A stretch of DNA of 58,940 nt, taken from assembly GCA_018895015.1 (NCBI GenBank), contig JAHIOX010000027.1, positions 1-58,940 of the forward strand, read 5' to 3'. This stretch comes from Patescibacteria group bacterium. GTDB taxonomy: Bacteria; Patescibacteriota; Minisyncoccia; UBA9983. The notes beneath the pieces are model-generated. The model did not search any database. It worked only from the letters and a program-made list of their open reading frames with translations, and was not told the origin of the DNA. The first letter of the stretch is position 1. Every line of letters begins with the position of its first letter. Of this stretch, positions 6,051-39,477 are shown one piece after another. Made by a program: the position numbers and the translations under genes.

Positions 6051-7070
6051 ATGCAGGTAGAAATCAAAAAACTTCCGGGGTCGGAGATTGAGATTATCGG
6101 TGGGATATCAGCCGATAATTTTGAAGTTTTTAGGCCGCGGGCCGTAAAAGAAATTTCTGACAGCATTGGAATTGACGGTTTTAGGCCAGGCAAAGCGCCG
6201 GAGAAAATTTTAATTGAAAAAGTGGGAGAAATGGCCGTTCTTGAAAAAATGGCAAATTTCGCTTTGGACAAGGAATATATTAAAATTATTGAAGAAAATA
6301 AAATAAAGGCGATTGGAAGGCCGGAAATCACAATTACTAAAATTGCCAAAAATAATCCGTTGGAATTTAAGATAAAGACAGCGGTTCTTCCTGAAATAGA
6401 ACTTCCCGATTACAAAGAGATTGCCGGTGAAATTATTGGAAAAGAAGAAGAAATTATTGTTGAAGACAGCGAAGTTGCCAAGGCGCTGGATTATTTGGTA
6501 AAAGCGCGCGCTGAAAAAAAGGAAAACGGAGAAGCGGTTATTCCGGAGCTGAATGATGAATTTGCCAAAAGCGTCGGCAAATTTGGTTCATTGGAAGAGC
6601 TTAAGCGTGCTATTAAAAACAATTTAAAAGAAGAAAAAACAGTAAATTCAGCGCAAAAGAAAAGAATTGAGATTTTGGATAAAATTATAGAATCCTCAAA
6701 AATGGATGTGCCGAATATCCTTGTTGTAGCGGAAAAAAACAAAATGAGGGAAGAAATGAAGGCGAGCATAACCCAAATGGGCGTTAAGTGGGAAGATTAT
6801 TTAAGCCATATTAAAAAAACAGAGGAAGAAATTGAGAAAGACTGGGATCAAGACGCGTTAAAGCGCGCGAAATATAATTTGGCGATAGAAGAAATCGCCG
6901 TTTTGGAGAAAATAGACGTTCCTGAAGAAGAATTGGGGCCGGAAACAGATAAATTAATGGAATATTATTCAGCGCGCTATAAAGATATTGACCGAGACCG
7001 GGTTAAGGCGTACACTTATGACATGATTAAAAACCAAAAAGTCTTTAATTTGCTGGAAAATAAAAAGTAA
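6051..7070 (+). CDS. tig: Trigger factor lacking the FKBP domain
   Basis: [10 protein letters not shown] ribosome-binding signature, ELNDEFAK, C-terminal domain; only 339 aa; precedes clpP. Confidence 0.9.
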
Positions 7071-7074
7071 AACC

Positions 7075-7653
7075 ATGTTAATACCGACAGTTATTGAAAA
7101 AACTCAATACGGAGAAAGGGCTTATGATATTTATTCTCGCTTGCTTAAAGAAAGAATCGTGTTTGTGGGCGGGTTGATCAGCGATCCGATGGCTAATACT
7201 GTTATTGCCCAGCTTTTGTTTTTGGAAAATGCGGACCCGCAAAAGGATATTCATCTTTATATAAATTCGCCAGGCGGGTCGGTAACTGCAACTCTTGCCA
7301 TGTATGACGTTATGAATCATGTTAAGCCGGATGTCGCCACTTATTGTGTCGGGCTAGCCGCTTCCGGAGGGGCGATACTTTTGGCCGGCGGCAAGAAAGG
7401 AAAGAGATTCGCTTTGCCAAACTCGGAGATTATGATTCACCAGGTGATGGGAGGCGCTGAGGGCCAAGCAGTTGATATTGATATTCAGGCGCGCCATATT
7501 TTAAGAATAAAAGATAAATTAAATCAGCTTCTTGCCAAGCACACAAATCAGCCTCTTTCTAAAATTGAAAAAGACACCGACCGAGACTTTTTTATGACTG
7601 CCGAAGAGGCCAAAAAATACGGCTTGATAGACAATATTTTGAAGGTGAAGTAA
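7075..7653 (+). CDS. clpP: ATP-dependent Clp protease proteolytic subunit
   Basis: [26 protein letters not shown] (Ser), IMIHQ (His), DTDRD. Confidence 0.97.
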
Positions 7654-7660
7654 GAGCGCT

Positions 7661-9283
7661 TTATTTCAATTTTTCCAGCAGGCTTTTGCTGGTCATTGAT
7701 TCCAGTTTTTTTATGCCCATCAGCTCTAAAATCGTTGGCGCGACATCGGTGAGGGTTCCCTTCACCGTTTTATAGCTTTCCTTTATTTCTTCTTCAGACG
7801 CGGGTTTTTCTTTTTTTGCTTCGCTGCTGATTAAATAAAAAGGCACGGGGTTGATTGAATGCTTTGTTTTTTCTTCACCGGTGGTTTTGTAGATTTTTTC
7901 TTCCGCGTTGCCATGGTCTGAAGTTATAACCATGGCGCCGCCCAAGCCCAGCACTTTTTCCATGATTTTACCGACGCAGATATCAAGAACTTCAAAGGCC
8001 TTTGCGGTTGCCGTAAAATTGCCGGTATGCCCAACCATGTCCGCGTTCGCGAAGTTAATTGCTATAAAGTCATATTTTTCAATATTGGAAACAACATCTT
8101 CAGTGATTTTTTTTGCTGACATTTCAGGCGCCTGGTCGTATGAAGGCACATCAGGAGATTCCACAAGTATTCTGTCTTCGTTCGCAAAAGGCGTTTCTCT
8201 GCCGCCGTTGAAAAAATAAGTAATGTGGGCGTATTTTTCAGTTTCAGCTATGTGCAGCTGCTTGAGGCCGTTTTCAGAAAGCACTTTTGCCAGCGGATGC
8301 TCCACTTCGGCTGATTTAAAAGCGACAAGAGATTGAAGCGTTTTGTCGTAGTCAGTCATTGTCACAAAAACAACGTTACTCAGGTTTTTTCTTGGAAATT
8401 TATTAAATTCTTTATCAATGAAAGAATGAGCCAGCTGGCGCATACTGTCTTCGCGGAAATTAAAAAATATTATTGCGTCGTTATCTTTGATTCTGGAATT
8501 TGGACTTGGACATCCAGTGTCCAAGTGGACACTGGATGTCCTTAAAAGCCCAGGTTCAATTATTTGGTCAAAAATGTCTTTTTCGTACTGATTTTGAATG
8601 TACGAGGAAGCAGAATCAAACTCTTTTCCTTCCCCATTAACGAAAAGATTATACGCTTTTTCTGTTTTTGCCCATTTGTTGTCGCGGTCCATCGCGAAAT
8701 TCCGGCCTATGACGGAAGCGATTTTTGTATTTGGATAATTTTGCTCAAGGTCTTTTTCCAGTTTTTTGTAAAATTCGGCGCCCTCTTTTTTGTAAGCGTC
8801 TTTGCCGTCTGCAAAAAGATGCAAACAAACGTTTTTTACTTTTTTCTGTTTTGCAAAATCCAAAAGCGCGTAGAGATGTTCAAAGTAGGCATGCACTGTT
8901 CCTGTGGAAAAAAGTCCAATAAGATGCAAGGATTTGGTTTCGTCCGGCAATCCGCCAGCAGGCGGATTTATATGCGCGACAGCTTTTAAAAAGGCCTCAT
9001 TGTTAAAAAAAGTATGGTCATTAATGGATCTTGATATGCGCGGCAGGTAATTAAAGATGATTTTTCCGGCTCCCATAGTGAGGTGCCCGACCTCGCTGTT
9101 CCCTGCTTCTCCCCAAGGAAGCCCGACTGCCATTCCGGACGCTTGGATAGCGGTGAACGGATAAAATTTTTCTATTTCCGAAAAAACAGTATGGCTGGCG
9201 ATTTCCCACGGAGAGCCGATTTTGTCAGGCGAAATTCCGAATCCGTCTATTATGATTAAAACGACAGGGCTATATTTTTTCAT
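7661..9283 (-). CDS. gpmI: 2,3-bisphosphoglycerate-independent phosphoglycerate mutase
   Basis: LIIIDGFG, GNSEVGH, AETEKYAH, NADMVGHTG, TSDHGNAE; start moved to ATG 9283. Confidence 0.95.
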   Translation of the reverse strand: MKKYSPVVLIIIDGFGISPDKIGSPWEIASHTVFSEIEKFYPFTAIQASGMAVGLPWGEAGNSEVGHLTMGAGKIIFNYLPRISRSINDHTFFNNEAFLKAVAHINPPAGGLPDETKSLHLIGLFSTGTVHAYFEHLYALLDFAKQKKVKNVCLHLFADGKDAYKKEGAEFYKKLEKDLEQNYPNTKIASVIGRNFAMDRDNKWAKTEKAYNLFVNGEGKEFDSASSYIQNQYEKDIFDQIIEPGLLRTSSVHLDTGCPSPNSRIKDNDAIIFFNFREDSMRQLAHSFIDKEFNKFPRKNLSNVVFVTMTDYDKTLQSLVAFKSAEVEHPLAKVLSENGLKQLHIAETEKYAHITYFFNGGRETPFANEDRILVESPDVPSYDQAPEMSAKKITEDVVSNIEKYDFIAINFANADMVGHTGNFTATAKAFEVLDICVGKIMEKVLGLGGAMVITSDHGNAEEKIYKTTGEEKTKHSINPVPFYLISSEAKKEKPASEEEIKESYKTVKGTLTDVAPTILELMGIKKLESMTSKSLLEKLK

Positions 9284-26904: not shown

Positions 26905-26977
26905 TTTAAAAAATGGGCTAAAAAGCTCAAAGCTTAAAAATAAAAAATTGAGACAATAAAAGAGAGGGGTGGGAGAA

Positions 26978-27439
26978 ATGAAAAAGAAAGAGATGAAAGG
27001 ATTTTGTTTTGCGTTTTTGGCATTAGCGGCGCTGTTATTGAGTTCTTGCGCCGCGGCGCCAATGGCAATGTATGCCGGCTCAGCAGTAGCTGGCGGGTAT
27101 CATTACGGTTCCACAATGACGTCACTGGGGTTTGGCGGTGGTAGCAACGGAACCCAACAGGACGGAGTTATTGTTTATCGTGACGGTGAGTATGCTAAGG
27201 GCTTGGCAAAAAAAGCCCTAAAAAATCTTGGGATCCAAGTTGACACTAGTATCCCTGTCACAGATGCTATCGTTGGTGTTACAAATGATAGTGTTAGGGT
27301 GCAAGTAACCATTATTGAGAAAACCAAGAAGTTGACCGAGATGAAAATCTCGGCAAAGAAGAATTTCGTGGTCAATGACCCGATGGTGGCAAAGTCGGTG
27401 TGCGACGAAATCAAACGCCTAGCAGGAATAAGAAGCTAG
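26978..27439 (+). CDS. Lipoprotein, DUF3568-like
   Basis: MKKK, hydrophobic stretch, LSSC lipobox; GGAG before ATG; DUF3568 resemblance is by eye only. Confidence 0.6.
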   Translation: MKKKEMKGFCFAFLALAALLLSSCAAAPMAMYAGSAVAGGYHYGSTMTSLGFGGGSNGTQQDGVIVYRDGEYAKGLAKKALKNLGIQVDTSIPVTDAIVGVTNDSVRVQVTIIEKTKKLTEMKISAKKNFVVNDPMVAKSVCDEIKRLAGIRS

Positions 27440-27471: not shown

Positions 27472-27509
27472 AAAGGGCGTATATCGTGTAAACTTGATAT
27501 GCGCCCTTT
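27472..27509. terminator. Hairpin terminator between convergent genes
   Basis: AAAGGGCGTATATC-10 nt-GATATGCGCCCTTT. Confidence 0.65.
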
Positions 27510-27532: not shown

Positions 27533-28408
27533 TTATCCACAGCCGCAGATTCCGCCCATCGGATCCCAGATTGACGAATTGGCGTATCCGCACACTCCGT
27601 TTATGCACCCGGTGTTAATTTGGCATCCTCCGACTCCGCAATCCGGCACAAACCAACAGCCGTGCTTGCCGCAATTATATCCGCAGTTACAGCATGGCGC
27701 CCACAGGTTGGCTCCAATCGGTTTTGGCGCGCCAATCCAAAAACAACTAACAATGGCGCAAGCTTTTTCTCCAAACGCGACCAATGCCAATTTTTCAATG
27801 CTTTTTTTAATGTAAATTTGCGATATTGATTTTGCCTGTTTTTCTTTTTCATTAAGCTCCGGAAGCGTATTGTTAACGCCGAATTTAAATCCTATTTTTT
27901 GGCCTTCTGTTATTGCGCCCTGAGCCGCAAGATAGTCTATGTATTTGTTGAGAAAGGCGATGATTTTTTCTTCTGACGTGAATTGTTTTTCGTCAGCGCT
28001 TATGGGATAGCCGTTATCCTCCATCATTTTTGCCATAGCGTTAAGGTATTCAATGTAATAATCAGGATAAGCGATTTTAAAATATTCTTCGTCGTTCATC
28101 GCTTTTTTCTCCTGAACAGGCAAAGATTCTTGGCTCTTGTCCGATAGGGGATTGTCCGATAGAAAAGAAAAGCCCGATTGTTTTATGAACGGGTCAATAA
28201 ATGTTTGCTTAAATTGGTTTTGCTGGTTTTGCGGCAGAGAGTAAGAAGTTTTAATTTTTTCTATTTCTAAATTTGATGCCGGCATTTTTTCTTCTTTGTT
28301 TTCTTTCTTTTCAGGCAAAGCAGTATAATTAAAAATCAAAAAAATAAAAATAATTGCGGTAGCAAGAGACGCTGACAGCAGCGCGATTTTTTTATTTTTT
28401 TCTGCCAT
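27533..28408 (-). CDS. Membrane-anchored protein with 13-Cys C-terminal domain
   Basis: N-terminal TM, charged middle, last 75 aa contain 13 Cys and end IWDPMGGICGCG. Confidence 0.8.
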   Translation of the reverse strand: MAEKNKKIALLSASLATAIIFIFLIFNYTALPEKKENKEEKMPASNLEIEKIKTSYSLPQNQQNQFKQTFIDPFIKQSGFSFLSDNPLSDKSQESLPVQEKKAMNDEEYFKIAYPDYYIEYLNAMAKMMEDNGYPISADEKQFTSEEKIIAFLNKYIDYLAAQGAITEGQKIGFKFGVNNTLPELNEKEKQAKSISQIYIKKSIEKLALVAFGEKACAIVSCFWIGAPKPIGANLWAPCCNCGYNCGKHGCWFVPDCGVGGCQINTGCINGVCGYANSSIWDPMGGICGCG

Positions 28409-28481
28409 AAATTTATTTTAACTTAAATTTCGTTATTTATCCACAAATAAAGTTTGCGTAATAATAATTTTTTTATAAAGA

Positions 28482-28490
28482 TGCTATAAT
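28482..28490 (+). promoter_or_regulatory. Extended -10 promoter heading the T4SS-like operon
   Basis: TGCTATAAT, 34 nt before TTG 28525; perfect DnaA box upstream at 28437-28445. Confidence 0.55.
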
Positions 28491-28524
28491 AAATAAGGCG
28501 CAATAATGCCGAATTTTATCATAT

Positions 28525-29505
28525 TTGCCGAGCAAAAAGTTTATTTACATAATTTTGGCGTTAGTCCTGCTGGTTGTTGCGGGATATTTGAGTTTTTTTA
28601 AAAACAAAAAAACCGGAGAATCGCTTTCAGGCAAAGAAAAAGGTTTTTTGTCATCATTTTTGGAGAAGAACCAAAATGACAAAGACAATGACGGGTTAAA
28701 AGATTGGGAAGAAAATCTTTGGAAAACCGACCTGAATAATCCTGATACTGACGGAGATGGAGCGCTGGACGGCGAAGAAACAAGAACAGGCAGAGATCCG
28801 CTAAAAGCCGGGCCTGATGATTTGATGGAAAATAAATTTTCCGCTTCCGCAAGTTCTTCAAAAAATAATTTTTCGGACAATGAAAGTTCTTTGACTGACA
28901 ATTTTTCAAAACAGTTTTTCTCGGAGTATTTGAAATTAAGGGAAGAGGGCGGGATTGACGAGTCGGATAAGGAAAAGCTGATCAATTCTTTTATGGAAAG
29001 CGTCCAGAACGAGCCGATTGGCGATTATCAGACATATAAAATTTCGGATATTAAAATCATTGATGATAATTCTGCTGTCGCGGCCAGGCGATACGGCAAT
29101 CAAGTTGGAAAAGTTTTGGATAATTTTAAAAATTTGACGGGGAACGAAATGGATATTATGCGCGCGGCGCTGGAAGAAGACAAGCCGGAAGAATTGAGCA
29201 AGCTGAATTTGTTCGCGTCAGCTTACAGGAAAAGCGCCGACGATTTTTTAAAAATTCAATGCCCGCCTTCTTTTTCCCAGACGCACCTTGATTTGATAAA
29301 CAGCTTTTTGGCCGTAGAATACGCGGTGGTTCAGGCGCAAAAAATATTTGACGATCCGATACGCGCCATGCAGGGAATAAAATTATATTTTGACCAAGGA
29401 AAAAAAATTATAGAAATATTTTCAAAAATGGGAGCGGAATTTGAAAAAAAAGATGTTTATTTCGGTTCGGATGAGCCAGGGTCTAATCTTTTACAATATT
29501 TTTAA
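28525..29505 (+). CDS. Membrane-anchored protein with TSP3-like Ca-binding repeats
   Basis: N-terminal TM; DKDNDGLKDWEE and DTDGDGALDGEE DxDxDG motifs. Confidence 0.8.
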   Translation: MPSKKFIYIILALVLLVVAGYLSFFKNKKTGESLSGKEKGFLSSFLEKNQNDKDNDGLKDWEENLWKTDLNNPDTDGDGALDGEETRTGRDPLKAGPDDLMENKFSASASSSKNNFSDNESSLTDNFSKQFFSEYLKLREEGGIDESDKEKLINSFMESVQNEPIGDYQTYKISDIKIIDDNSAVAARRYGNQVGKVLDNFKNLTGNEMDIMRAALEEDKPEELSKLNLFASAYRKSADDFLKIQCPPSFSQTHLDLINSFLAVEYAVVQAQKIFDDPIRAMQGIKLYFDQGKKIIEIFSKMGAEFEKKDVYFGSDEPGSNLLQYF

Positions 29506-29512
29506 AGCTTAT

Positions 29513-30805
29513 ATGAATAATAAAAAAACAAAAAAAATTATACCGGCGATTTTGCTGATTTTCATGCTTTTGCCGCCGATATTTTTATTTAATATTCAGA
29601 AAGCCAATGCCATAGTGCCTGTAGCTGATATGGTAAACAATCCTAAAGAGCAAATACTTGATGCTGTCGGCTGGATGGCCGCTAAAACAGTTATCCGACA
29701 ATTTACAACCGGAATTGTAAATTGGATAAATACCGGTTTTGAAGGCAATCCCGTGTTTATAACGGATTTTAACGCGTTTTTGAAGGATATCGCGAATGAG
29801 GCGACTGGCATATTTATTGAGGAATTGGAACTGACTGACTTGTGCAGTCCGTTTAGGCCCCAGTTGCTGGCGGCATTTAAAAAAGGAAAGCCGTATGAAT
29901 GGCGGATGAAGTGCACACTTAACGATGTTGTTGACAATATTGAAGCGTTTGAGAAAGATTTTAACGCCGGCGGGTGGAAAGCGTGGATGTCAATGACGAC
30001 TCAAAGCCAGAACAATGTTTATGGCGCTTATTTGGAATCACTGGACGAACTTGAAGCAAAAAAAGCGGCGGCAATGCGCGCCGCGGAAAAAGAAGCTGAA
30101 ATGGGCAATGGTTTTATGAGCATGAAGGTCTGCGCTTCCAGAACGGCTAAAGGCAGTTGCGAGAAATGGGAGATAACTACTCCGGGCAAAATTATTGAAG
30201 GCCAGTTAAACGAAACTCTTGGCACAGACCTTAGGCAGTTGGAAATCGCGGATGAGTTGAATGAAATTGCCGCGGCCGCGGTAAATCAGATGTTTACATG
30301 GGTTATAACCGGAGGAAGCGGAGGCGGCGGGTTAAGAGGAACTTCCGGAGCTTCGGTTAAAACAGCGGCTGTTGATTTTGAAAAGATACGCAGGGATTTT
30401 ATCAGCGAAATTGATAAAACCGTCAGCCAGGAGATTGTTTACAGAAACATAAAACAGCGCTCAGCAGACACATTAAAAGACATTAAAGATGCTTACATAA
30501 AATTGGAAAATTGCGATAAATTGGACCATGCAACAGAAATAAGCGCGGCAGATTCCAAAATCGCCTCTTTGCAAAACGAGGTGTCAAGGTCAAATGTTCT
30601 TATTGATAATTTGAATTATATCAGGGGCAAAGCGCTGACGGCTGCCGACGCGGTTCAGTTGGCTTATTTGTCCAGCGATTACGTTAAGTTAAGCGAGCAA
30701 GTAAGAAGCCATGACCAGATTAGCGCGCAGAACGAATTGGACGGGTATAAAACACAATTAACACAGGTTCAGAATACATTGACGCGATGTCTTAGGAAAA
30801 ATTAG
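29513..30805 (+). CDS. Secreted hypothetical protein of CPR T4SS-like clusters
   Basis: Signal peptide ending KANA; paired Cys; C-terminal coiled coil; start moved to ATG 29513. Confidence 0.7.
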   Translation: MNNKKTKKIIPAILLIFMLLPPIFLFNIQKANAIVPVADMVNNPKEQILDAVGWMAAKTVIRQFTTGIVNWINTGFEGNPVFITDFNAFLKDIANEATGIFIEELELTDLCSPFRPQLLAAFKKGKPYEWRMKCTLNDVVDNIEAFEKDFNAGGWKAWMSMTTQSQNNVYGAYLESLDELEAKKAAAMRAAEKEAEMGNGFMSMKVCASRTAKGSCEKWEITTPGKIIEGQLNETLGTDLRQLEIADELNEIAAAAVNQMFTWVITGGSGGGGLRGTSGASVKTAAVDFEKIRRDFISEIDKTVSQEIVYRNIKQRSADTLKDIKDAYIKLENCDKLDHATEISAADSKIASLQNEVSRSNVLIDNLNYIRGKALTAADAVQLAYLSSDYVKLSEQVRSHDQISAQNELDGYKTQLTQVQNTLTRCLRKN

Positions 30806-30817
30806 AAATGAATAATT

Positions 30818-32686
30818 ATGAATAATAAATTTAAAAAATTCCGCCCGCTTGCTTTGTTCGGAGTCATAAGCGTTTTGGCTGTTTTGTTTTTTTTTGATAT
30901 TCATTACGCTCACGCCGGCGTATGGGATTTGATTTGGAATACAACGAAAAATGGCATTGCCACTCTCGCGGCGTATATATTGTATTATCTTGTGTTTATG
31001 CCAATATCCGGCGTATTTTGGGCAGCCGGCCAATTTTTTAATGTTTGCGTCGCCATTTCGCTGAACAGCGAAGTTTTTAACACAAAAATGGTTGTTGATG
31101 GATGGGCCATATCGCGAGATGTCGCGAACCTGTTTTTTATATTTATTCTTCTTTATATCGCTATCGCGACAATTCTGCAGCTAAGCAATTACGGGACGAA
31201 GCAACTGTTAGGCAAGATTATAATTATCGCTTTGCTTGTGAATTTCAGCTTGCTCATAACAAGAGTAATTGTTGATTCGTCAAATATTTTGGCTTTGGAG
31301 TTTTATGATTCCATTTCTGTTGAGGGAGGGACAGCGACTTCAATAATGGCCGGCGGAACCGCCAAAGATTTGTCCCAGGTTTTTGTGAGCGGTTTTAATC
31401 CTCAAAATTTATTAAAATCCAAAAATTTCGCAAGCACCATAGATGAAGGGGTTATAGACACTCTGCTGGTGGTTGTGGTTTCAATGTTGCTTGCCTCAAT
31501 ATTGGTGTTGGTCGCGGCATTTGTTCTTTTTGCCGCGGGCATCCTTTTTGTGATTCGTACTGTTACGCTGTGGCTTTTAATGGTTTTGGCGCCATTGGCT
31601 TTTTTGGCAATGACGCTTCCGGCGACAAAAGGCCACGCGTCTAAGTGGTGGACAAAATTATTTGAGCAGTCGTTTTTCGCTCCGGTTTTTATGTTTTTAT
31701 TTTATCTTGTCGCGAAAATAATCGATTCCGGCTTTCTTAATAATATGGTAACAAGCATAGATGTCGGCGGCGGAGTGAGCGAGGGCTTTAAAGAAACTTT
31801 TTCAACTTTCGCGGTTGTTTCAATACAATTTGTTTTTCTAGGCGCTTTGATGATAGCATGTCTTGTTATCGCGAAACAAATGGGCGCGTACGGGGCGACA
31901 ACAATGCAAAGCTGGGGCCAGAGCGCAAGAAAATGGGGGCAGGGATACGCGGGCAAGGTCGCGCTCCGCCGTCTGTCTCCGCTCGCGCGCGAAATGGAAT
32001 CAGGCAAAGCGCAGGAGCGCAGCAAATATAATCCCATGCGGCTTCCAATGTGGGCGGCGCGCAAGGCTGGAAAAGCCGCGCCGTATATTCCGGGAGCGCA
32101 GGCTGGGTTGCAGACTTTGGGAACGCATTATGGCAGGGACGTTGAAGATCGGGCAAAAAATTTGGACAAATTCAGTTCGGATGAATTATCAAGAAGAATC
32201 AAGATCGCGACTTTACCTGTTGATCGCGCGGCAATAATGAAAAAACTTACCGAAAGAGGCGATATTGGCAAATTAAATGATGTTGATGTTAGAAAGGGCA
32301 AGGCATTATTGTCTAATGTGGGAATGGCAGGCGCCATAAAAGATATTGATAGATTAAGGCCTGATCTTGCCGGCACATCTGCGGAGATTAAAAAAGCCGT
32401 TAGTTATCAGAACCCCGAGCATGTGGCTAAACTTAATAAATCATTAAGTTCAAACAATGACGTTATTGAAGGCATGCTGGATCATTATAAAGCGGGGCAT
32501 ATCAGCGCGCTGGTTAATAGGGGGGATGAATTGTTTGCTGAATACGCAAAAGCGCTGGAGGCATTGGATGCATCTGGTGCTAAAAATACGGCGAATATTG
32601 CGGCGGCATTGCGAAGCCGAAAAAATGAAGGCGCGGCAAAATGGATAGAAACGACAACCGCTAAACAACTTTTGGGGCTTTCCTAA
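30818..32686 (+). CDS. VirB6/TrbL-like polytopic membrane protein
   Basis: Many TMs; RDVANLFFIFILLY, LLVNFSL, RTVTLWLLMVLAPLAF, WWTKL; upstream of prgI and virB4. Confidence 0.7.
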   Translation: MNNKFKKFRPLALFGVISVLAVLFFFDIHYAHAGVWDLIWNTTKNGIATLAAYILYYLVFMPISGVFWAAGQFFNVCVAISLNSEVFNTKMVVDGWAISRDVANLFFIFILLYIAIATILQLSNYGTKQLLGKIIIIALLVNFSLLITRVIVDSSNILALEFYDSISVEGGTATSIMAGGTAKDLSQVFVSGFNPQNLLKSKNFASTIDEGVIDTLLVVVVSMLLASILVLVAAFVLFAAGILFVIRTVTLWLLMVLAPLAFLAMTLPATKGHASKWWTKLFEQSFFAPVFMFLFYLVAKIIDSGFLNNMVTSIDVGGGVSEGFKETFSTFAVVSIQFVFLGALMIACLVIAKQMGAYGATTMQSWGQSARKWGQGYAGKVALRRLSPLAREMESGKAQERSKYNPMRLPMWAARKAGKAAPYIPGAQAGLQTLGTHYGRDVEDRAKNLDKFSSDELSRRIKIATLPVDRAAIMKKLTERGDIGKLNDVDVRKGKALLSNVGMAGAIKDIDRLRPDLAGTSAEIKKAVSYQNPEHVAKLNKSLSSNNDVIEGMLDHYKAGHISALVNRGDELFAEYAKALEALDASGAKNTANIAAALRSRKNEGAAKWIETTTAKQLLGLS

Positions 32687-32714
32687 TTAAAATCTTAATT
32701 TTTTAACAATTATT

Positions 32715-33296
32715 ATGCCAAAATTAACACCCGAACAAATTAGAAAAATTTATTTAAATCTTCCAAAAGATTTGCAAGAGGCGATTTTGAGCGTTGACAG
32801 CGCTGAAAAGATTAGAGCCATAGGAGAAAAATACCATTTGGCCATTGATAAAATGGGAGAGATGGCTGATGAGACCGGCTTGGTTATGCTTGGCTTGACC
32901 AGCCCGCGCGAATTTATTCCCAATCTGGCGGCAAGACTTAATGTTGACAAGGAGATGGCAAGAAAAATAGCGGAAGAAATTAACGGCCAGGTGTTTGTTC
33001 GCGTCAGAGAATCATTAAAAAAAGTGCATGCGATTAAGGAAGAAGGCGGTGGCAAAGAAGAGCATCCGCAAAAAGCGGAAATATTAAATGAGATAGAAAA
33101 AGAGGATGGCAAAGAAGAAACCCCGTCTATTTTAAAAGGGATTGCAGTGCCGCTTGCGCCGAGCCTGCCTGCGCAGGCAGGTGAAGTCGAGGTGCCCCAT
33201 CCTTTTGAAGCAAAGATAAAGAATGAAGTTTTCAGAATACCTCCGGAGGAAAGAAAATATAAAGGGAGCGACCCTTATAAGGAACCAATAATATGA
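32715..33296 (+). CDS. Conserved CPR-type hypothetical protein
   Basis: LPKDLQEAILS, GLVMLGL, ends DPYKEPI; inside the operon. Confidence 0.75.
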   Translation: MPKLTPEQIRKIYLNLPKDLQEAILSVDSAEKIRAIGEKYHLAIDKMGEMADETGLVMLGLTSPREFIPNLAARLNVDKEMARKIAEEINGQVFVRVRESLKKVHAIKEEGGGKEEHPQKAEILNEIEKEDGKEETPSILKGIAVPLAPSLPAQAGEVEVPHPFEAKIKNEVFRIPPEERKYKGSDPYKEPII

Positions 33297-33700
33297 GATT
33301 CCAAGTCCCTCAATTTATAGAAGTGGAAAGCAAAATTTTCGGTCCGTTAACGCTCAAGCAGTTTATTTATCTGTTGGGCGGGGCAGGAGTGATTTTCCTT
33401 TTGTATGTTGTTTTGCCATTTTGGCTTATGATTATTTTCGCTTTGCCAGTCGGCGCTTTTTCTTTAGCTTTGGCGTTTTATAAAATAAATAACCGCCCTT
33501 TTATAAAAGTGGCTGAAAGCGCTTTGAAGTATTTTATTGCGGATAATTTATATTTATGGAAGAAAAAACAACGCAAATCCGATGTTCCGCAAACTAAGGT
33601 CGTGAAAGAAACACCGCCTTCTCTTTATGTGCCTAAGCTTACGGAAAGCAAATTAAAGGATTTATCATGGAGTCTGGATATTAAAGATACGCTCAAATAA
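33293..33700 (+). CDS. PrgI-family (VirB3-like) protein
   Basis: FQVPQFIEVESKIFGPLTLKQF, two TMs, KINNRPF. Confidence 0.85.
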   Translation: MRFQVPQFIEVESKIFGPLTLKQFIYLLGGAGVIFLLYVVLPFWLMIIFALPVGAFSLALAFYKINNRPFIKVAESALKYFIADNLYLWKKKQRKSDVPQTKVVKETPPSLYVPKLTESKLKDLSWSLDIKDTLK

Positions 33701-33702
33701 TT

Positions 33703-34335
33703 ATGGCTATAGCTTCAAAAGCAACTCAAGAATTTATCCCGATAAAGGAAATTCGCGACGGAGTCGTTATTTTAAAGGACAATTCTTTGCATATTATTTT
33801 AATGGCTTCAACTTTGAACTTTGCCTTAAAGTCAGAGGATGAGCAGACCGCGATTCTTATGCAATATCAGAATTTTTTAAACTCCCTTGATTTTTCAGTC
33901 CAGTTTTTTGTTGAATCAAGAAAGCTGAATATCGGTCCGTACATCGCGACTTTAAAAAATGCGGAAGAAGAGCAGGCGAATGAATTGCTTAAAATCCAAA
34001 CGAGGGAATACATAGAATTTGTCAAAAATTTTGTGAAATCAACAAATATAGTAGCGAAAACTTTTTATGTAACGGTCGCGTATAACCCTTCTGTTTTCGG
34101 TATTAACAATAAAGGATTTCTTGGAGATATTGGGAAAAAATTTACAAGCAAAAGCGATAGCGCGCCAGGAGAACGTTTTGAAGAGCATGTGTTACAGCTT
34201 CAGCAGAGAGCATCTGTGGTTCAGCAGGGATTGGCCGGCGCCGGCGTCAGGACAGTCGCTCTTAATACGGAAGAGCTTATAGAATTATTTTATAAACTGT
34301 TTAATCCGGGGGAATTGGAAAAAGAAATAAAATAA
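33703..34335 (+). CDS. T4SS-associated protein (VirB4/TraC N-terminal-like)
   Basis: NFALKSEDEQ, FLNSLDF, LNTEELIELFY; between prgI and virB4. Confidence 0.65.
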   Translation: MAIASKATQEFIPIKEIRDGVVILKDNSLHIILMASTLNFALKSEDEQTAILMQYQNFLNSLDFSVQFFVESRKLNIGPYIATLKNAEEEQANELLKIQTREYIEFVKNFVKSTNIVAKTFYVTVAYNPSVFGINNKGFLGDIGKKFTSKSDSAPGERFEEHVLQLQQRASVVQQGLAGAGVRTVALNTEELIELFYKLFNPGELEKEIK

Positions 34336-34340
34336 AATTT

Positions 34341-36143
34341 ATGTCATTTTCAGATTTTTTTAAAAAAGAAAAAAAAGAAGAGGATATTACTCCGATTATT
34401 CCGCAAGAAATTTACGAGACCGGCGTTTTGCAGCTTCAGGACGTTATTGCTCCTTCGGCTTTGCAAATAACTCAAAATTATATCCGCATAGGGAGCAAAG
34501 TGGCAAAAATTATTTTTGTGATGGCATATCCCCGTTTTTTGGCAAGCGGGTGGTTTTCGCCGGTTATTAACCTGGATAAAGTTTTTGATATTTCTATTTT
34601 TGTGCATCCGGTTGATACGGCTTCAACTCTTAGGCAGCTTCAAAAAAAGGTTGCCGAGGTCCAGTCTCAAATCCATACAAGAGAAGAAAAAGGGCTCGTA
34701 CGCGATCCGATGCTTGATACCGCTTATCAGGACCTTGAGGATTTAAGGGATAAGCTTCAGCAGGCGCAAGAAAAACTTTTTAATGTCGGGCTTTACATCA
34801 CTATTTACGCTGACGACCTTGAAGAGCTTGACAGGCTTGAGATAGAAATAAGGTCGCTTCTTGAATCCAAGCTTGTCTATGTAAAACCGGCTCTTTTTCA
34901 GCAAAAAGAAGGCCTTGAAAGCGTTCTCCCGATTGGAATGGATAATCTGGGAATCAACACTCAACTTAATTCCTCGCCGGTCTCAAGCATATTCCCGTTC
35001 GTGTCTTTTGACCTTTCTTCGGACAAAGGAATTCTTTACGGCATCAACAGGCACAACAACAGTTTGGTTTTGTTTGACAGGTTTTCTATGGAAAATTACA
35101 ATTCAGTTATTTTCGCAAAGGCCGGTTCCGGAAAATCATACGCCGCTAAGCTGGAGGTGTTGCGGAGTTTGATGTTTGAAACAGAGGTGATTGTTATTGA
35201 CCCGGAAAAGGAATACGAATATTTAGCTGAAGTTGTTGACGGCAGATATTTTAATATCTCTTTGACTTCAAACCATCATATTAATCCGTTTGACCTTCCG
35301 CCGGTAAGGGAAGACGAATCTCCGGCGGATGTTCTGCGTTCAAACATTATCAGCCTTGTCGGCCTTTTCCGCCTTATGCTCGGCGGAATAACTCCGGAGG
35401 AAGATTCTATTATGGATAGAGCAATCACTGAAACTTACGCGGCGCGCGACATAACGCCGGAAAGCGATTTTTCTCATGCCATAGCCCCGACTCTTTCCGA
35501 TCTGGAGCTTGTTTTGGCCGGCATGGAGGGCGGGGAATCTTTGGCCCAGCGATTAAGCAAATATACCAAGGGCACATGGGCCGGTTTTATAAACCAGCCG
35601 ACAAATGTTGATATAAACAAGAAATTGGTCGTGTTTTCAATTAGAGACATGGAAGACGAGTTAAGGCCGATCGGAATGTATTTGATAACTCATTATGTAT
35701 GGAACGCGGTTAGAAAAGACATAAAGAAAAGGCTTCTTGTAATTGATGAGGCGTGGTGGATGATGAAATACGAAGACACTGCTTCGTTTTTGTTCGGCAT
35801 CGCTAAAAGGTGCAGAAAATACTATTTGGGGCTCGCGACGATTACCCAGGATGTGAATGATTTTCTTTCTTCTCCGTATGGCGCTCCGATTATCACTAAC
35901 TCCTCAATTCAGATTTTGCTTAAGCAGTCGCCGGCGACAATTGATTTGGTGCAGAAAACTTTTAATCTCACTGACGAAGAAAAATTCCTGCTTTTGGAGG
36001 CGGACGTCGGCGAGGGAATATTTTTTGCCGGCATGAAGCACGTCGCGATAAAAATTTTGGCTTCTTACACGGAAGACCAGATAATCACTTCCGACCCGTC
36101 GCAATTATTGGCAATTAAAAAGGCGAAAGAGGAATTAAAATAA
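34341..36143 (+). CDS. virB4: VirB4-like ATPase
   Basis: Walker A AKAGSGKS, VIDPEKEY, INPFDL, Walker B VIDEAW, RKYYLG, ITQD. Confidence 0.85.
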   Translation: MSFSDFFKKEKKEEDITPIIPQEIYETGVLQLQDVIAPSALQITQNYIRIGSKVAKIIFVMAYPRFLASGWFSPVINLDKVFDISIFVHPVDTASTLRQLQKKVAEVQSQIHTREEKGLVRDPMLDTAYQDLEDLRDKLQQAQEKLFNVGLYITIYADDLEELDRLEIEIRSLLESKLVYVKPALFQQKEGLESVLPIGMDNLGINTQLNSSPVSSIFPFVSFDLSSDKGILYGINRHNNSLVLFDRFSMENYNSVIFAKAGSGKSYAAKLEVLRSLMFETEVIVIDPEKEYEYLAEVVDGRYFNISLTSNHHINPFDLPPVREDESPADVLRSNIISLVGLFRLMLGGITPEEDSIMDRAITETYAARDITPESDFSHAIAPTLSDLELVLAGMEGGESLAQRLSKYTKGTWAGFINQPTNVDINKKLVVFSIRDMEDELRPIGMYLITHYVWNAVRKDIKKRLLVIDEAWWMMKYEDTASFLFGIAKRCRKYYLGLATITQDVNDFLSSPYGAPIITNSSIQILLKQSPATIDLVQKTFNLTDEEKFLLLEADVGEGIFFAGMKHVAIKILASYTEDQIITSDPSQLLAIKKAKEELK

Positions 36144-36146
36144 TAT

Positions 36147-36443
36147 ATGGAAAACGCGGAGGCAAAAACATCGCCGCTATCTTTCGGCAAAAAGATTTCA
36201 GAGCACTGGATTATTTTGCTGGCAGCCGTTATTTTTGATATTTTTGCCTTGATTCCGTTTATCAGCGTTATTTTTAATTTATGCTTTGCCGGAATTTTGT
36301 ATTTGTATTTTGCCAGCAGGGGCGATTCTAATTTTTTGAAAACAGGCCTTTTAATTGGAGGGGCAAGCGCCATTGATTTAATTTTAAGCTTTCTGCCGGT
36401 TAATGTCGGCGCCGCGTTATATAAAATTTTGAGCAAAAAATGA
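36147..36443 (+). CDS. Small membrane protein
   Basis: 98 aa with 2-3 hydrophobic segments; in operon. Confidence 0.65.
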   Translation: MENAEAKTSPLSFGKKISEHWIILLAAVIFDIFALIPFISVIFNLCFAGILYLYFASRGDSNFLKTGLLIGGASAIDLILSFLPVNVGAALYKILSKK

Positions 36444-36474
36444 TTAGTGTTATAATTAAATTAAATAAAGATTT

Positions 36475-37431
36475 ATGAAAAGAGGCGTTATAATGATTTT
36501 TTTGATAGTTTTGTTAGTCGGCATGCTGTGGTTGTCTAATTACGCAAGCGCGATTGGCGAAGATTTTATTGTTGGATTTACTCCAGAAAACCCGGGCCCT
36601 AACACAGAGATTATCGCAAAGGCGGCGAGTTATGTTTTTGACATAAATAGAGCGACTATCACATGGATTGTTAATGATAAGACAGCGCTAAAGGGCGTTG
36701 GTGAGAAAGAATTTTCTTTTAAAACAGGCGATTCGCTGTCTAGCACGCGGCTGTCGGTCGCGGTTGTTACGGAGGACGGGGAATACATAAGAAAAGATTT
36801 TTCTTTTAAGGGCACGGATGTTGACATATTATGGGAAGCTCTGACTTATACTCCTTCCGCGTATCAAGGCAAGGCGCTCCCTTCTTCTGAGTCCATGGTT
36901 AGGATAACCGCGGTGCCGCATTTTTCTGTTTTGCCGTCAAAATTGATTTATGAATGGAAAGTTGGTTACAAAAATATGCCTAGCTTGTCCGGAGCGGGGA
37001 AGCAATCATTTGTTTTAAAAATGCCTGAAAATTTTAATTCAGTTAAGGTGAGCGTGAATGTTTCCAGCTATAATAAAACTATTACGGCGGAGGAAAGTAT
37101 CAGCATATCGTCCGGAAAGCCAAAGATATTATTTTATGAATACAGCGAATTGGATGGCGCGCGGTACAACAAAGCGCTTAATAAAGAAATTCAATTAAAC
37201 GATAGCGAAATAACCATTAACGCGGAGCCATACTTTTTTTCCAGAAAAGACCTTGAGTATCTTTCATATAATTGGTCTATAAATAATCAAAAAGCGGAAA
37301 CCGAGAAATTTCCAAACTCTATTTTTTTGAAAAAAGGCGAGGGAAGCGGCGTATCCGTGATAGGATTAAAGATAGAGAACACTTTGAATATTTTGCAATT
37401 TGCAGAGAATTTTTTGCGAATAAATTTTTGA
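36475..37431 (+). CDS. Secreted beta-rich (Ig-like) hypothetical protein
   Basis: Signal peptide (YASA); repeated Y/I-x-W beta motifs; TGTTATAAT at 36448-36456. Confidence 0.7.
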   Translation: MKRGVIMIFLIVLLVGMLWLSNYASAIGEDFIVGFTPENPGPNTEIIAKAASYVFDINRATITWIVNDKTALKGVGEKEFSFKTGDSLSSTRLSVAVVTEDGEYIRKDFSFKGTDVDILWEALTYTPSAYQGKALPSSESMVRITAVPHFSVLPSKLIYEWKVGYKNMPSLSGAGKQSFVLKMPENFNSVKVSVNVSSYNKTITAEESISISSGKPKILFYEYSELDGARYNKALNKEIQLNDSEITINAEPYFFSRKDLEYLSYNWSINNQKAETEKFPNSIFLKKGEGSGVSVIGLKIENTLNILQFAENFLRINF

Positions 37432-37440
37432 CATAAAAAA

Positions 37441-38268
37441 ATGAACAAAAAAATTAAAAATTTGATAATCGCGCTGTCTGCTTGTCTGGTAATATTCCCT
37501 GTTTATGCTTTCGCTTACACGCTTTTGCAGCCATTGCCCGGGATTACGGAAGTCAGCGGAGGACAGGGATTTTCGCAATATCTGTCGTGGATTTTTAAAT
37601 TCGCGCTTATTGCCGCCGCTTTTTTGGCCGTTATCCAAATAGTCATAGCCGGTGTTGAGATGGTTGGAAGCGCCGCGAGTGAAAAGGCGCGCGGGGACGC
37701 GGAACAAAGAATTCGCGACGCGGTTTTGGGCCTTTTGCTGGCTTTTGGCGCGTGGCTTATTTTGTACACAATAAACCCGGATTTAGTAAAAATGGAATTA
37801 AACATTCCGGATATTAATATCAAAGCGGTTTCATTGTTAGAGTCTGGAGAGTTTGCCACCGTAGATAGAAATAAAATTAGCGCGGCTGCGGCGCGCGATC
37901 AGTTTTCCGAAATTGGAATTGACGTTAAATCTGAATGTCCGCTGGGCGTGAGTACGGGATGCGTTAAATTGGAAGGCATAAGGCAATCTACCATAGATGA
38001 ATTAAAAAATCTTAAAGAGCAATTTCCCGGAGCTCAAATATATGTAACAGGCGGGACAGAATCGGGGCATTCATCTGGCGCAACTTCTCACAGCAACGGC
38101 TATAAAGTTGATTTAAGATTGAACACGGAGTTAGATAAATACATTATGAAAAATTTTACTCAGGCCGGCGTGCGGAGTGATGGAGCGGAAAAATGGATAA
38201 ATCCCAAAACAGGAGCGGTTTACGCTTTGGAGCGCGGAGGCGATCCGCATTGGGATGTAGTCAGGTAG
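37441..38268 (+). CDS. Pilin-like (TrbC/VirB2-type) N-terminus fused to M15/LAS-type metallopeptidase domain
   Basis: Signal peptide, two TMs, AKGDAEQRIRDA-like helix, ILYTINPDL; C-terminal SHSNGYKVD (HxxxxxxD) and PHWDV. Confidence 0.7.
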   Translation: MNKKIKNLIIALSACLVIFPVYAFAYTLLQPLPGITEVSGGQGFSQYLSWIFKFALIAAAFLAVIQIVIAGVEMVGSAASEKARGDAEQRIRDAVLGLLLAFGAWLILYTINPDLVKMELNIPDINIKAVSLLESGEFATVDRNKISAAAARDQFSEIGIDVKSECPLGVSTGCVKLEGIRQSTIDELKNLKEQFPGAQIYVTGGTESGHSSGATSHSNGYKVDLRLNTELDKYIMKNFTQAGVRSDGAEKWINPKTGAVYALERGGDPHWDVVR

Positions 38269-38292
38269 CAAAATAAATAAGCAATAAAAGAT

Positions 38293-39477
38293 ATGAACAA
38301 AAAAACAATTATAATTTTATCGGCAATAATATTTTTTCTTTTGCTTGGAGCGGGAATTTTTTGGTTTTATTTTAAAAATGGAGGGACGCCTTTTGAAGAA
38401 GGAAGCGTGCTTTCAAAATTATTTCCATTTGCGGAAAAGCGCGATTTGGAAAATCAGACTCCGGGAACTGAAATTCCGTTGGCAGAGCGCGAGGGAGGGG
38501 CGTTAATTCAAATTACAAGAAACGCGGTAAGCGGGGCCGGATTCGGGACATCAACGGTCAGATATGTGGATAAGCAAACTGGCCATATTTATGAGAGCGA
38601 TGTTGACGGCAAGAACAGCAAAAGAATTTCCAACACTACTTTTTTGAAAACTTTTGAATCCGAGTGGTCATATAACGCGGATAAGTTAGTGCTTAAATAT
38701 TTTTCAGACGAAGATTACGAGTCGTATCTTCCGGTAAAAATGTTTTCCGCCTCTCTTGGGAGCGGCGATGAGCAGTCTCCGCTAAAAGGCGTTTTCCTCC
38801 CTTTGGCGGCAAAGGAAGTTGCTGTTTCGCCTTTTGAGGATAAGATTTTTTATCTTGCCTCTGAAGAAGGGCAAACGCTTGGGATTGTCGCTGATTTTGA
38901 AAATAAAAACCAAAAGAATATTTTTAGCATGCCGTTTGGAGAATTTAACGCAAGCTGGCCCTCAAAGAAGTTAATCACATTGCTTACTAAGCCCTCTTTC
39001 GGGTCTGAAGGTTTTTTTTATTCACTTGAGCCGGTTAGCGGGAAATTTGAAAAAATAATTGGAGACATAAAAGGTTTGACGGCTTTGCTTTCGTCAAATG
39101 GCGAAATGGCAATTTACAGCAAAAGCGCGGATAAAACAATCGATACAAAGATTTTTGATGTTAAAAATAAAACATCGCAGGATTTTAATTTGACGACCTT
39201 TCCGCAGAAATGCGTTTGGGGAAAAATTTATGAAGATGTTTTGTATTGCGGAACGCCTATTGATTTAGCCAGGGCGGATTATCCGGACGAGTGGTACCAA
39301 GGAGTAGTTTCTTTTAATGACTCAATATGGATGATTAATTTTTCAACGGACGAGTCGAAAATTTTGGCCGGCGATACCGGCAGCGATGTTATTAGCCCGT
39401 TTTTAAGCAAGGACGAAGATTATTTATTTTTCATCAACAAAAAAGACAATACTCTGTGGAGTTTTAAATTAAGATAG
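38293..39477 (+). CDS. Membrane-anchored beta-propeller-like hypothetical protein
   Basis: N-terminal TM; TolB-like repeats (SEWSYNAD, AVSPFED, ASWPS, ISPFLS). Confidence 0.65.
   Translation: MNKKTIIILSAIIFFLLLGAGIFWFYFKNGGTPFEEGSVLSKLFPFAEKRDLENQTPGTEIPLAEREGGALIQITRNAVSGAGFGTSTVRYVDKQTGHIYESDVDGKNSKRISNTTFLKTFESEWSYNADKLVLKYFSDEDYESYLPVKMFSASLGSGDEQSPLKGVFLPLAAKEVAVSPFEDKIFYLASEEGQTLGIVADFENKNQKNIFSMPFGEFNASWPSKKLITLLTKPSFGSEGFFYSLEPVSGKFEKIIGDIKGLTALLSSNGEMAIYSKSADKTIDTKIFDVKNKTSQDFNLTTFPQKCVWGKIYEDVLYCGTPIDLARADYPDEWYQGVVSFNDSIWMINFSTDESKILAGDTGSDVISPFLSKDEDYLFFINKKDNTLWSFKLR

Follow-up and report, generated by a model that had tools for sequence, protein, structure and literature searches.

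The gene described here lies in a stretch of 58,940 nucleotides of Patescibacteria DNA, the whole of which we refer to as the window. The genome that holds the gene measures 570 kb and is about 98% complete. The Cys-rich C-terminal peptide that had drawn attention to this place is the exact end of a 291-aa ORF on the minus strand (Table 1), in which it is preceded by KLALVAFGEKACA. The coordinates originally assigned to the peptide, 27533-27760, comprise the stop codon and residues 217-291. These last 75 residues contain 13 Cys (17.3%), 15 Gly (20%) and 4 Trp (5.3%), compared to 0.59% Cys, 6.5% Gly and 0.93% Trp as background, calculated from 23 long ORFs of the window. The binomial probability of finding at least 13 Cys in 75 residues is approximately 9e-16. 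The other 216 residues of the protein contain no Cys at all.

As had been described, the gene is divergent from a secretion operon: the T4SS operon begins at 28525 on the plus strand, and both share one intergenic region. In addition to the genes listed in Table 1, the operon encodes a TraC-N-like protein, the VirB4 ATPase and a T4SS_pilin-like protein (a pilin fusion), as assigned by Pfam. The order of the T4SS genes is identical in every related locus of sufficient length, and the context of the gene matches the T4SS context described previously (PMC12102498). The other flank is formed by a Gly-rich lipoprotein gene, rsmA/ksgA, a gene of 347 aa for which no family match was found, uvrD and an M23/LysM peptidase gene. 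The hairpin between the target gene and the convergent lipoprotein gene is likely a bidirectional terminator. A promoter-like site on the minus strand (28443-28415) is suggested by its position only, its match to the consensus being no better than the shuffled expectation. Within the operon, the VirB4 function is divided between two proteins, one TraC-N-like with 210 aa (33703-34335, plus strand) and the other a 600-aa ATPase (34341-36143, plus strand), in agreement with the TrsD-plus-VirB4 arrangement that is reported to be common in Patescibacteria (PMC12102498). The secreted 454-aa protein (29441-30805, plus strand) is listed with a TTG start that would place its first 65 nt within the TSP3 gene; its translation probably begins at the ATG near 29513 (MNNKKTKK...), from which a signal peptide results.

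Table 1. Features of the gene and its surroundings, in coordinates of the window.
Feature	Position	Strand	Basis or remark
Whole gene, 291 codons plus stop (27533-27535)	27533..28408	-	ORF; exported two-domain protein of an unannotated Patescibacteria family
N-terminal signal-anchor helix, residues 4-28	28325..28399	-	AF2 helix 4-28; N-in/C-out
Linker, residues 29-100: low-complexity, little conserved, predicted disordered	28109..28324	-	AF2; alignments
Conserved all-helical domain, residues 101-204	27797..28108	-	motif EEYFxxxYPxxYIxYLxxMQ
Short amphipathic helix, residues 205-215 (...IEKLALVAFGEK), running into A-x-A	27764..27796	-	AF2 helix 205-212
Conserved A-x-A (A216-C217-A218)	27755..27763	-	putative type I signal-peptidase-type processing site
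C-terminal disulfide-rich domain, residues 219-291, end IWDPMGGICGCG	27536..27754	-	12 conserved Cys; alignments A1-A3
Hairpin with 15-bp stem	27472..27509	.	between target gene and convergent lipoprotein gene
Divergent intergenic region, 116 bp	28409..28524	.	common to target gene and first gene of the T4SS operon
T4SS operon: TSP3-repeat anchor protein, secreted 454-aa protein, VirB6/TrbL, PrgI/VirB3 and others	28525..39477	+	Pfam matches

The membrane anchor that had been proposed for the protein is real and consists of an N-terminal hydrophobic helix (about residues 4-33). Of 155 homologues, 137 have such a hydrophobic N-terminal segment. Family-wide, the N-terminal flank of this first helix carries a mean charge of +2.4 and the C-terminal flank of -0.15; the N-flank is the more positive one in 106 sequences and the reverse holds in 3. 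The rest of the protein is therefore located outside the cell. This charge bias also excludes an alternative topology in which the middle domain is cytoplasmic and an internal signal peptide crosses the membrane, for which the second helix is moreover too weakly hydrophobic. In two homologues (P0137 and P0058) the anchor seems from the sequence to be replaced by a cleavable N-terminal signal peptide, with the internal A-x-A kept.

An AF2 model of the full-length protein, based on an alignment of 124 sequences, had a mean pLDDT of 80. The linker scored between 45 and 72, with residues 60-81 below 50, and the region is gap-rich in alignments A1 and A2. For the helical domain, with helices at residues 106-196, the pLDDT was 94-98 over residues 111-190. 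It is followed by a low-confidence linker that includes A-x-A (residues 195-220, pLDDT ~57-68), in which helix 205-212 was modelled with a pLDDT of about 57. In the C-terminal domain, hereafter the head, residues 222-291 form a small beta-rich fold with a pLDDT of 83-96. When modelled alone, the head gave a pLDDT of 86.8 and a pTM of 0.72.

The original prediction of a 13-cysteine domain holds for the protein itself, in which all 13 Cys are present, but not for the family: 12 of them are conserved, and C217 is found in 4% of homologues. Over 124 aligned homologues the conserved Cys were lost in pairs. C239 and C242 were lost together in 12 of 12 cases (ratio 1.00), C257 and C262 in 33 of 34 (0.97), C273 and C290 in 12 of 13 (0.92), C246 and C251 in 62 of 69 (0.90), and C222 and C240 in the single case that occurred (1/1). 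No loss was seen for C268 and C288 in these homologues, such that C268-C288 is paired by elimination. From this pairwise loss we predict six disulfides (C222-C240, C239-C242, C246-C251, C257-C262, C268-C288 and C273-C290) rather than a Zn or Fe-S site. As judged from the alignment, the co-loss thus supports the disulfide-bonded nature that had been suggested for the C-terminal domain. An export signal that leaves the domain outside the cell, together with Cys that are conserved and pairwise lost, is characteristic of an extracytoplasmic disulfide-bonded domain.

A possible oxidant is encoded in the genome as a membrane-anchored Thioredoxin_4 protein with a CPFC motif (G000:C4, L039 1414-2118); a search of the genome for VKOR found none. 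MdbA-like oxidoreductases are enriched in CPR genomes (bioRxiv 10.1101/335083). The gene of the CPFC protein is flanked by a flavoprotein ORF of 306 aa and a tubulin/FtsZ-like ORF of 369 aa (G000:C4, L039 416-3254), which we read from their motifs as thioredoxin reductase and FtsZ. Homologues of the secreted 454-aa T4SS protein contain 8-10 Cys in the three loci counted (L025, L026 and L028), and this protein may need disulfide formation too.

Ahead of the head lies the A-x-A motif. In 123 sequences, A occupies position -3 in 84% (otherwise V, T, I or L) and position -1 in 98%. Residues at -2 are bulky or polar; at +1, Q is the residue in 40%, and P does not occur. These residues agree with the rule for type I signal peptidase (small residues at -3 and -1, no Pro at +1). 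The distance from A-x-A to the first conserved Cys is mostly 2-13 residues and rarely longer, neither AF2 model gives the motif an ordered structure, and the genome encodes a single S26 signal peptidase. The resemblance to a processing site is not due to chance; the motif is the best-conserved linear one of the linker, and its pattern fits a type I signal-peptidase site. The stretch before it had been called hydrophobic; it turned out to be amphipathic and is not a membrane-spanning h-region. The longest uncharged run in this stretch has a family-wide median of 8 aa, and a transmembrane-grade hydrophobicity over 15 aa is reached in only 3% of the sequences. No membrane-spanning h-region, which type I signal peptidase would require directly upstream of its site, was found at this position, and the topology puts the helix outside the membrane. 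Since the preceding helix is amphipathic and located outside the membrane, A-x-A does not belong to a canonical internal signal peptide. Judged by its residues, the motif is nevertheless a plausible site of signal-peptidase cleavage. The family might thus provide an example of a conserved internal processing site of the A-x-A type that has no membrane-spanning signal sequence before it.

An exhaustive phmmer search against 1.84 billion representatives provided 171 clusters (50% identity) at E<=1e-3, of which 83 were found at E<=1e-10; a word-indexed search gave 9 relatives. Nearly all family members are 280-360 aa long and share one architecture: a hydrophobic N-terminal helix, a variable linker, a helical region, A-x-A and a Cys-rich end. 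The consensus of the latter is CY[KR]...G.N.WA.CCNCG..C...GC.....DCG.....C...GCLN..C....AIWDP.TGICGCG, it finishes with the motif IWDPxxGICGCG, and most members stop exactly at ...CGCG. Two forms exist, one with 12 Cys and one with 8 Cys that lacks the central CG..C...C...DCG...C insert. In the longer members (480-830 aa) no extra Pfam domain was recognised. Short sequences of 98-199 aa, which could have been natural forms made of a signal peptide and a head, are in fact truncated gene calls.

The family is real and unannotated. That no known family could be recognised, as noted at the outset, was confirmed by each of the searches. In a Pfam-A scan the best match had E=0.15, far under the cut-off, and neither NCBIfam nor PHROGs returned a match. 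A profile search of PDB sequences gave no match for the head at E<=10 and noise only for the full length. Foldseek comparisons with the PDB provided best E values of 0.99 and 7.2 for the full-length and head models, respectively, and the best E value for the head model in BFVD was 4.4. For the helical domain no fold match was found in the PDB either. The AlphaFold models that had been called for are confident, yet without a structural match in these comparisons. The homologues preserve the Cys spacing, and no housekeeping Fe-S or Zn family could be assigned. A possible kinship with the neighbouring TSP3-anchor protein was rejected at an hhalign probability of 17%. No match was obtained by tblastn against phage and plasmid collections, such that an origin from a mobile element is unsupported. 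A description of the family was not found in the literature.

The gene evolves under purifying selection. In comparison to the closest relative (L040), dN/dS was 0.22 for the whole gene; it was lowest in the helical domain (0.11) and reached 0.20 in the head and 0.30 in anchor and linker. These values indicate that the gene is functional, and the helical domain is constrained beyond what a simple pro-region would show. Between loci the protein shares 25-39% identity, the range also seen for the exposed T4SS parts (TSP3 protein, 454-aa protein and TrbL); the corresponding ranges are 68-79% for VirB4, 43-68% for UvrD and 42-58% for RsmA.

The distribution of the family is patchy. An even sample of 400 genomes across the phylum contained no true match beyond the class of the window. 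In the class-wide sample, a full-length member was found in about 46 of 401 genomes (~12%), belonging to many families; this is a lower bound, as the best five first-look candidates per genome were scored. In the order of the window the family occurs in 2 of 18 genomes. The order's only other copy (L035, G008:C17, 3607-4508 and 2033-3650) is split by a frameshift into ORFs of 96 and 215 aa and may be a pseudogene or an assembly error; this locus also has two extra membrane-protein ORFs (128 and 401 aa) between rsmA and the split copy. Among 41 sampled relatives, VirB4 was present in 40 and the family in 4. Given these frequencies, the family is an accessory to a nearly universal T4SS.

Where the gene is present, it is linked to the T4SS. 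In all 28 genomes with both genes on one contig, the gene is located at the 5' end of the operon and at a distance of 5.9-10.2 kb from virB4, which answers the earlier question of co-occurrence with VirB4 clusters. On short contigs the neighbours of the gene are alike. The gene is divergent from the operon in 22 genomes, and in the other 6 (from family f5, and G577) it is co-directional. It is the first gene of the cluster in all four co-directional loci that were fetched (L025-L028). In G577 the linkage to the T4SS persists without rsmA or uvrD nearby, showing that the gene is tied to the T4SS rather than to rsmA. The linkage is thus independent of orientation and of the other neighbours, with the exception of a distant variant in G040 (E=2e-5), which is not linked to a T4SS. 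This variant (L034, G040:C7, 4393-5355) has a high GC content and encodes 320 aa with a transmembrane anchor and 12 Cys (...IWDQETLTCGCG...). It adjoins a 581-aa gene, and a remoter branch of the domain may exist beyond the T4SS context.

In relatives without the gene, the place beside the operon is either empty or taken by other genes. In L014, L015, L018 and L022 rsmA directly abuts the operon. Exported proteins occupy the slot in L016 (PG_binding_1 and TIG domains, 7674-8324, minus strand) and in L020 (TSP3 and TIG domains, 6354-7076, minus strand). A small secreted family of 122-230 aa is also encoded there, in L016 (7298-7666), L020 (5981-6349) and L021 (7172-7864), each on the minus strand. 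Its members have a signal peptide and an A-x-A followed by ...PFGG[RK]I..., and no Pfam match was found for them. These observations suggest a variable slot for secreted proteins, some of which have binding-type domains.

We tentatively propose, with a confidence that falls a little short of even, that the protein is an accessory, lineage-variable, exported, disulfide-bonded binding module of the Patescibacteria T4SS, possibly cut at A-x-A. What the analysis shows is the architecture of the protein, the direction of its export, the pattern of Cys pairing, the conservation of the family, the purifying selection on the gene and its unvarying place at the 5' edge of the operon. That the protein binds or acts as an adhesin, contributes to T4SS function and is cleaved is what we infer here, as are the readings of the head as adhesin or toxin-like and as possibly released in the original prediction. 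In the proposed mechanism, the protein would be exported by Sec and kept in the membrane by its N-terminal signal anchor, and the disordered linker and the helical domain, acting as a stalk, would hold the 70-residue head outside the cell. There the head would be oxidised to six disulfides, probably by the membrane-anchored DsbA/MdbA-like CPFC oxidoreductase. The module would then help the T4SS to engage the envelope of a partner or host. The A-x-A would most likely be a maturation site, at which a type I signal-peptidase-like enzyme could part the head from the stalk. Such a role would resemble the reliance of monoderm T4SSs on surface adhesins (PMC12102498). Homology or fold likeness to any adhesin or T4SS protein was not detected in Pfam, NCBIfam, PHROGs, PDB or BFVD. 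As only ~12% of the class genomes have the gene, the T4SS itself does not need it.

Host recognition and attachment of Patescibacteria are largely unexplained, and only for the T4SS has it been shown, in one cultured strain, that epibiotic growth requires it (PMC12102498). As related bacteria need this machine to live on a host, a protein encoded at the edge of its operon is a plausible candidate for a part of the host contact. The variable slot at the operon edge and a compact six-disulfide domain without known relative therefore represent testable candidates for host contact. The head is small and, according to the models, confidently folded, such that it should be amenable to expression, disulfide mapping and binding tests. 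A more far-reaching version of the proposal would see the six-disulfide head as a new fold and the determinant of host specificity in these epibionts. The head would be displayed or shed at the T4SS contact once an unusual internal cleavage of the signal-peptidase type has taken place, and lineages would exchange it for other binding modules in a dedicated 'adhesin slot' at the 5' edge. We regard this version as speculative and rather unlikely.

An alternative explanation is that the protein is a pre-pro-peptide, in which the anchor and the helical domain serve export and folding, and cleavage at A-x-A frees a diffusible 70-aa agent with six disulfides, which works at a distance from the T4SS as a toxin, a signal or a bacteriocin-like factor. 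The A-x-A as the best-conserved linear feature of the disordered linker, the spacer of variable length behind it, the S26 peptidase of the genome and the end of most members at ...CGCG, as expected for a compact mature peptide, all fit this explanation. Sec-exported pre-pro forms with a disulfide-rich C-terminal peptide are known, for example of the heat-stable enterotoxin type. The supposed pro domain is, however, the most constrained part of the protein (dN/dS of 0.11 compared to 0.20 for the head, with a pLDDT of 94-98), which is unusual for a pro-region. In addition, the helix before A-x-A is amphipathic and provides no signal-peptide h-region, and the conserved neighbourhood holds no linked immunity or transporter gene. 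Taken together we consider a freed peptide unlikely, though it keeps appreciable weight.

The synteny with the T4SS could also reflect the gene order of the class rather than function, the protein then being an unrelated envelope protein whose place beside the operon was inherited. In agreement with this, the block of M23 peptidase, uvrD, rsmA and T4SS is syntenic across the class, ksgA/rsmA has been reported as a common neighbour of virB4 (PMC12102498), and the gene possesses a promoter region and a terminator of its own. An inherited order does not readily account for an adjacency to the 5' end that outlasts both the inversion to the co-directional arrangement in 6 genomes and the loss of rsmA and uvrD in G577, nor for the slot of relatives being filled by other extracellular proteins of the binding type. 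We therefore consider mere inheritance of the order improbable.

Very improbable is a role as a core structural part of the T4SS, e.g. as a functional stand-in for extracellular components of the VirB7, VirB5 or VirB8 type. The invariant position of the gene at the operon edge speaks for such a part, and export and anchoring are as in many monoderm T4SS parts. It is largely refuted by the presence of VirB4 in 40 of 41 relatives compared to 4 of 41 for the family (~46 of 401 genomes in the class), and by the several relatives in which rsmA stands against the operon and the slot is empty. A metal-binding domain (Zn, Fe-S or metallothionein-like) or a RiPP precursor core, of which the dense Cys with CC, CxC and CxxC spacing are reminiscent, is hardly credible for an outward-facing domain whose Cys are lost in pairs and not in ligand sets of three or four, which matches no metal-domain family in Pfam or NCBIfam, and whose precursor is 291 aa long with a transmembrane anchor and neighboured by rsmA, uvrD, a lipoprotein gene and T4SS genes only. 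Modifying enzymes, be they of the radical-SAM, YcaO, lanthipeptide or another type, are absent from the conserved neighbourhood.

The accessory binding module proposed here has counterparts in several known systems, which we regard as functional analogies only. These are the adhesins of monoderm T4SSs, TraN of F-type T4SSs and pre-pro peptides of the enterotoxin type. TraN is an extracytoplasmic, Cys-rich and disulfide-dependent protein for mating-pair stabilisation, which contacts the partner surface and sets partner specificity. Like TraN, the target would be an extracytoplasmic Cys-rich protein encoded together with a T4SS. TraN is an outer-membrane protein of diderms with roughly 600 aa, and the target matched it neither in Pfam at E<=1 nor by fold. 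Peptides of the heat-stable enterotoxin type combine an export signal, a pro region, a processing site and a C-terminal disulfide-rich peptide that depends on DsbA. Their overall length is about 70 aa, they contain three disulfides and their pro region evolves fast, whereas the 'pro' part of the target is a strongly conserved folded domain of 100 aa and its cleavage is putative.

The adhesins of monoderm conjugative T4SSs (MPF-FATA type), such as PrgA, PrgB and PrgC upstream of the pCF10 channel genes, are exported surface proteins whose genes directly precede those of the channel on the 5' side. Like them, the target appears to be a lineage-variable accessory of the channel, and the T4SS of Patescibacteria is homologous to the monoderm class (PMC12102498). 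In contrast to the target, with its N-terminal anchor and 70-aa six-disulfide head, the MPF-FATA adhesins are large, LPXTG-anchored and not Cys-rich, and there is no similarity in sequence or fold. In size, CC-containing Cys pattern and extracellular location the head is also similar to chitin-binding domains of the hevein/CBM18 type ('CCS..G.CG') and to pacifastin-like domains, the latter having recently been claimed in CPR MAGs (PMC13388995). The Cys spacing of the target differs from that of these domains, however, and no match to Chitin_bind_1 or Pacifastin_I was found in Pfam at E<=1, nor any match among PDB sequences or by Foldseek. The genomic contexts of the claimed domains (rpoB/C, dnaK and mltG; PMC13388995) also differ from that of the target.

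Two further observations concern copies and neighbours of the gene. Two or three copies per MAG were found on short contigs in G728 (C5 and C11) and G765 (C52, C53 and C120). Each of them adjoins a TSP3 gene or a T4SS fragment, and they could represent mixed strains in the bin or duplicated loci. A Gly-zipper lipoprotein gene (YMGG type) accompanies the target in some loci on differing sides: in the window it is convergent with the target (26969-27439, plus strand), and in L004 (2844-3281) it is located upstream and co-directional. This lipoprotein gene evolves fast, with a dS of 0.92 in comparison to L040.
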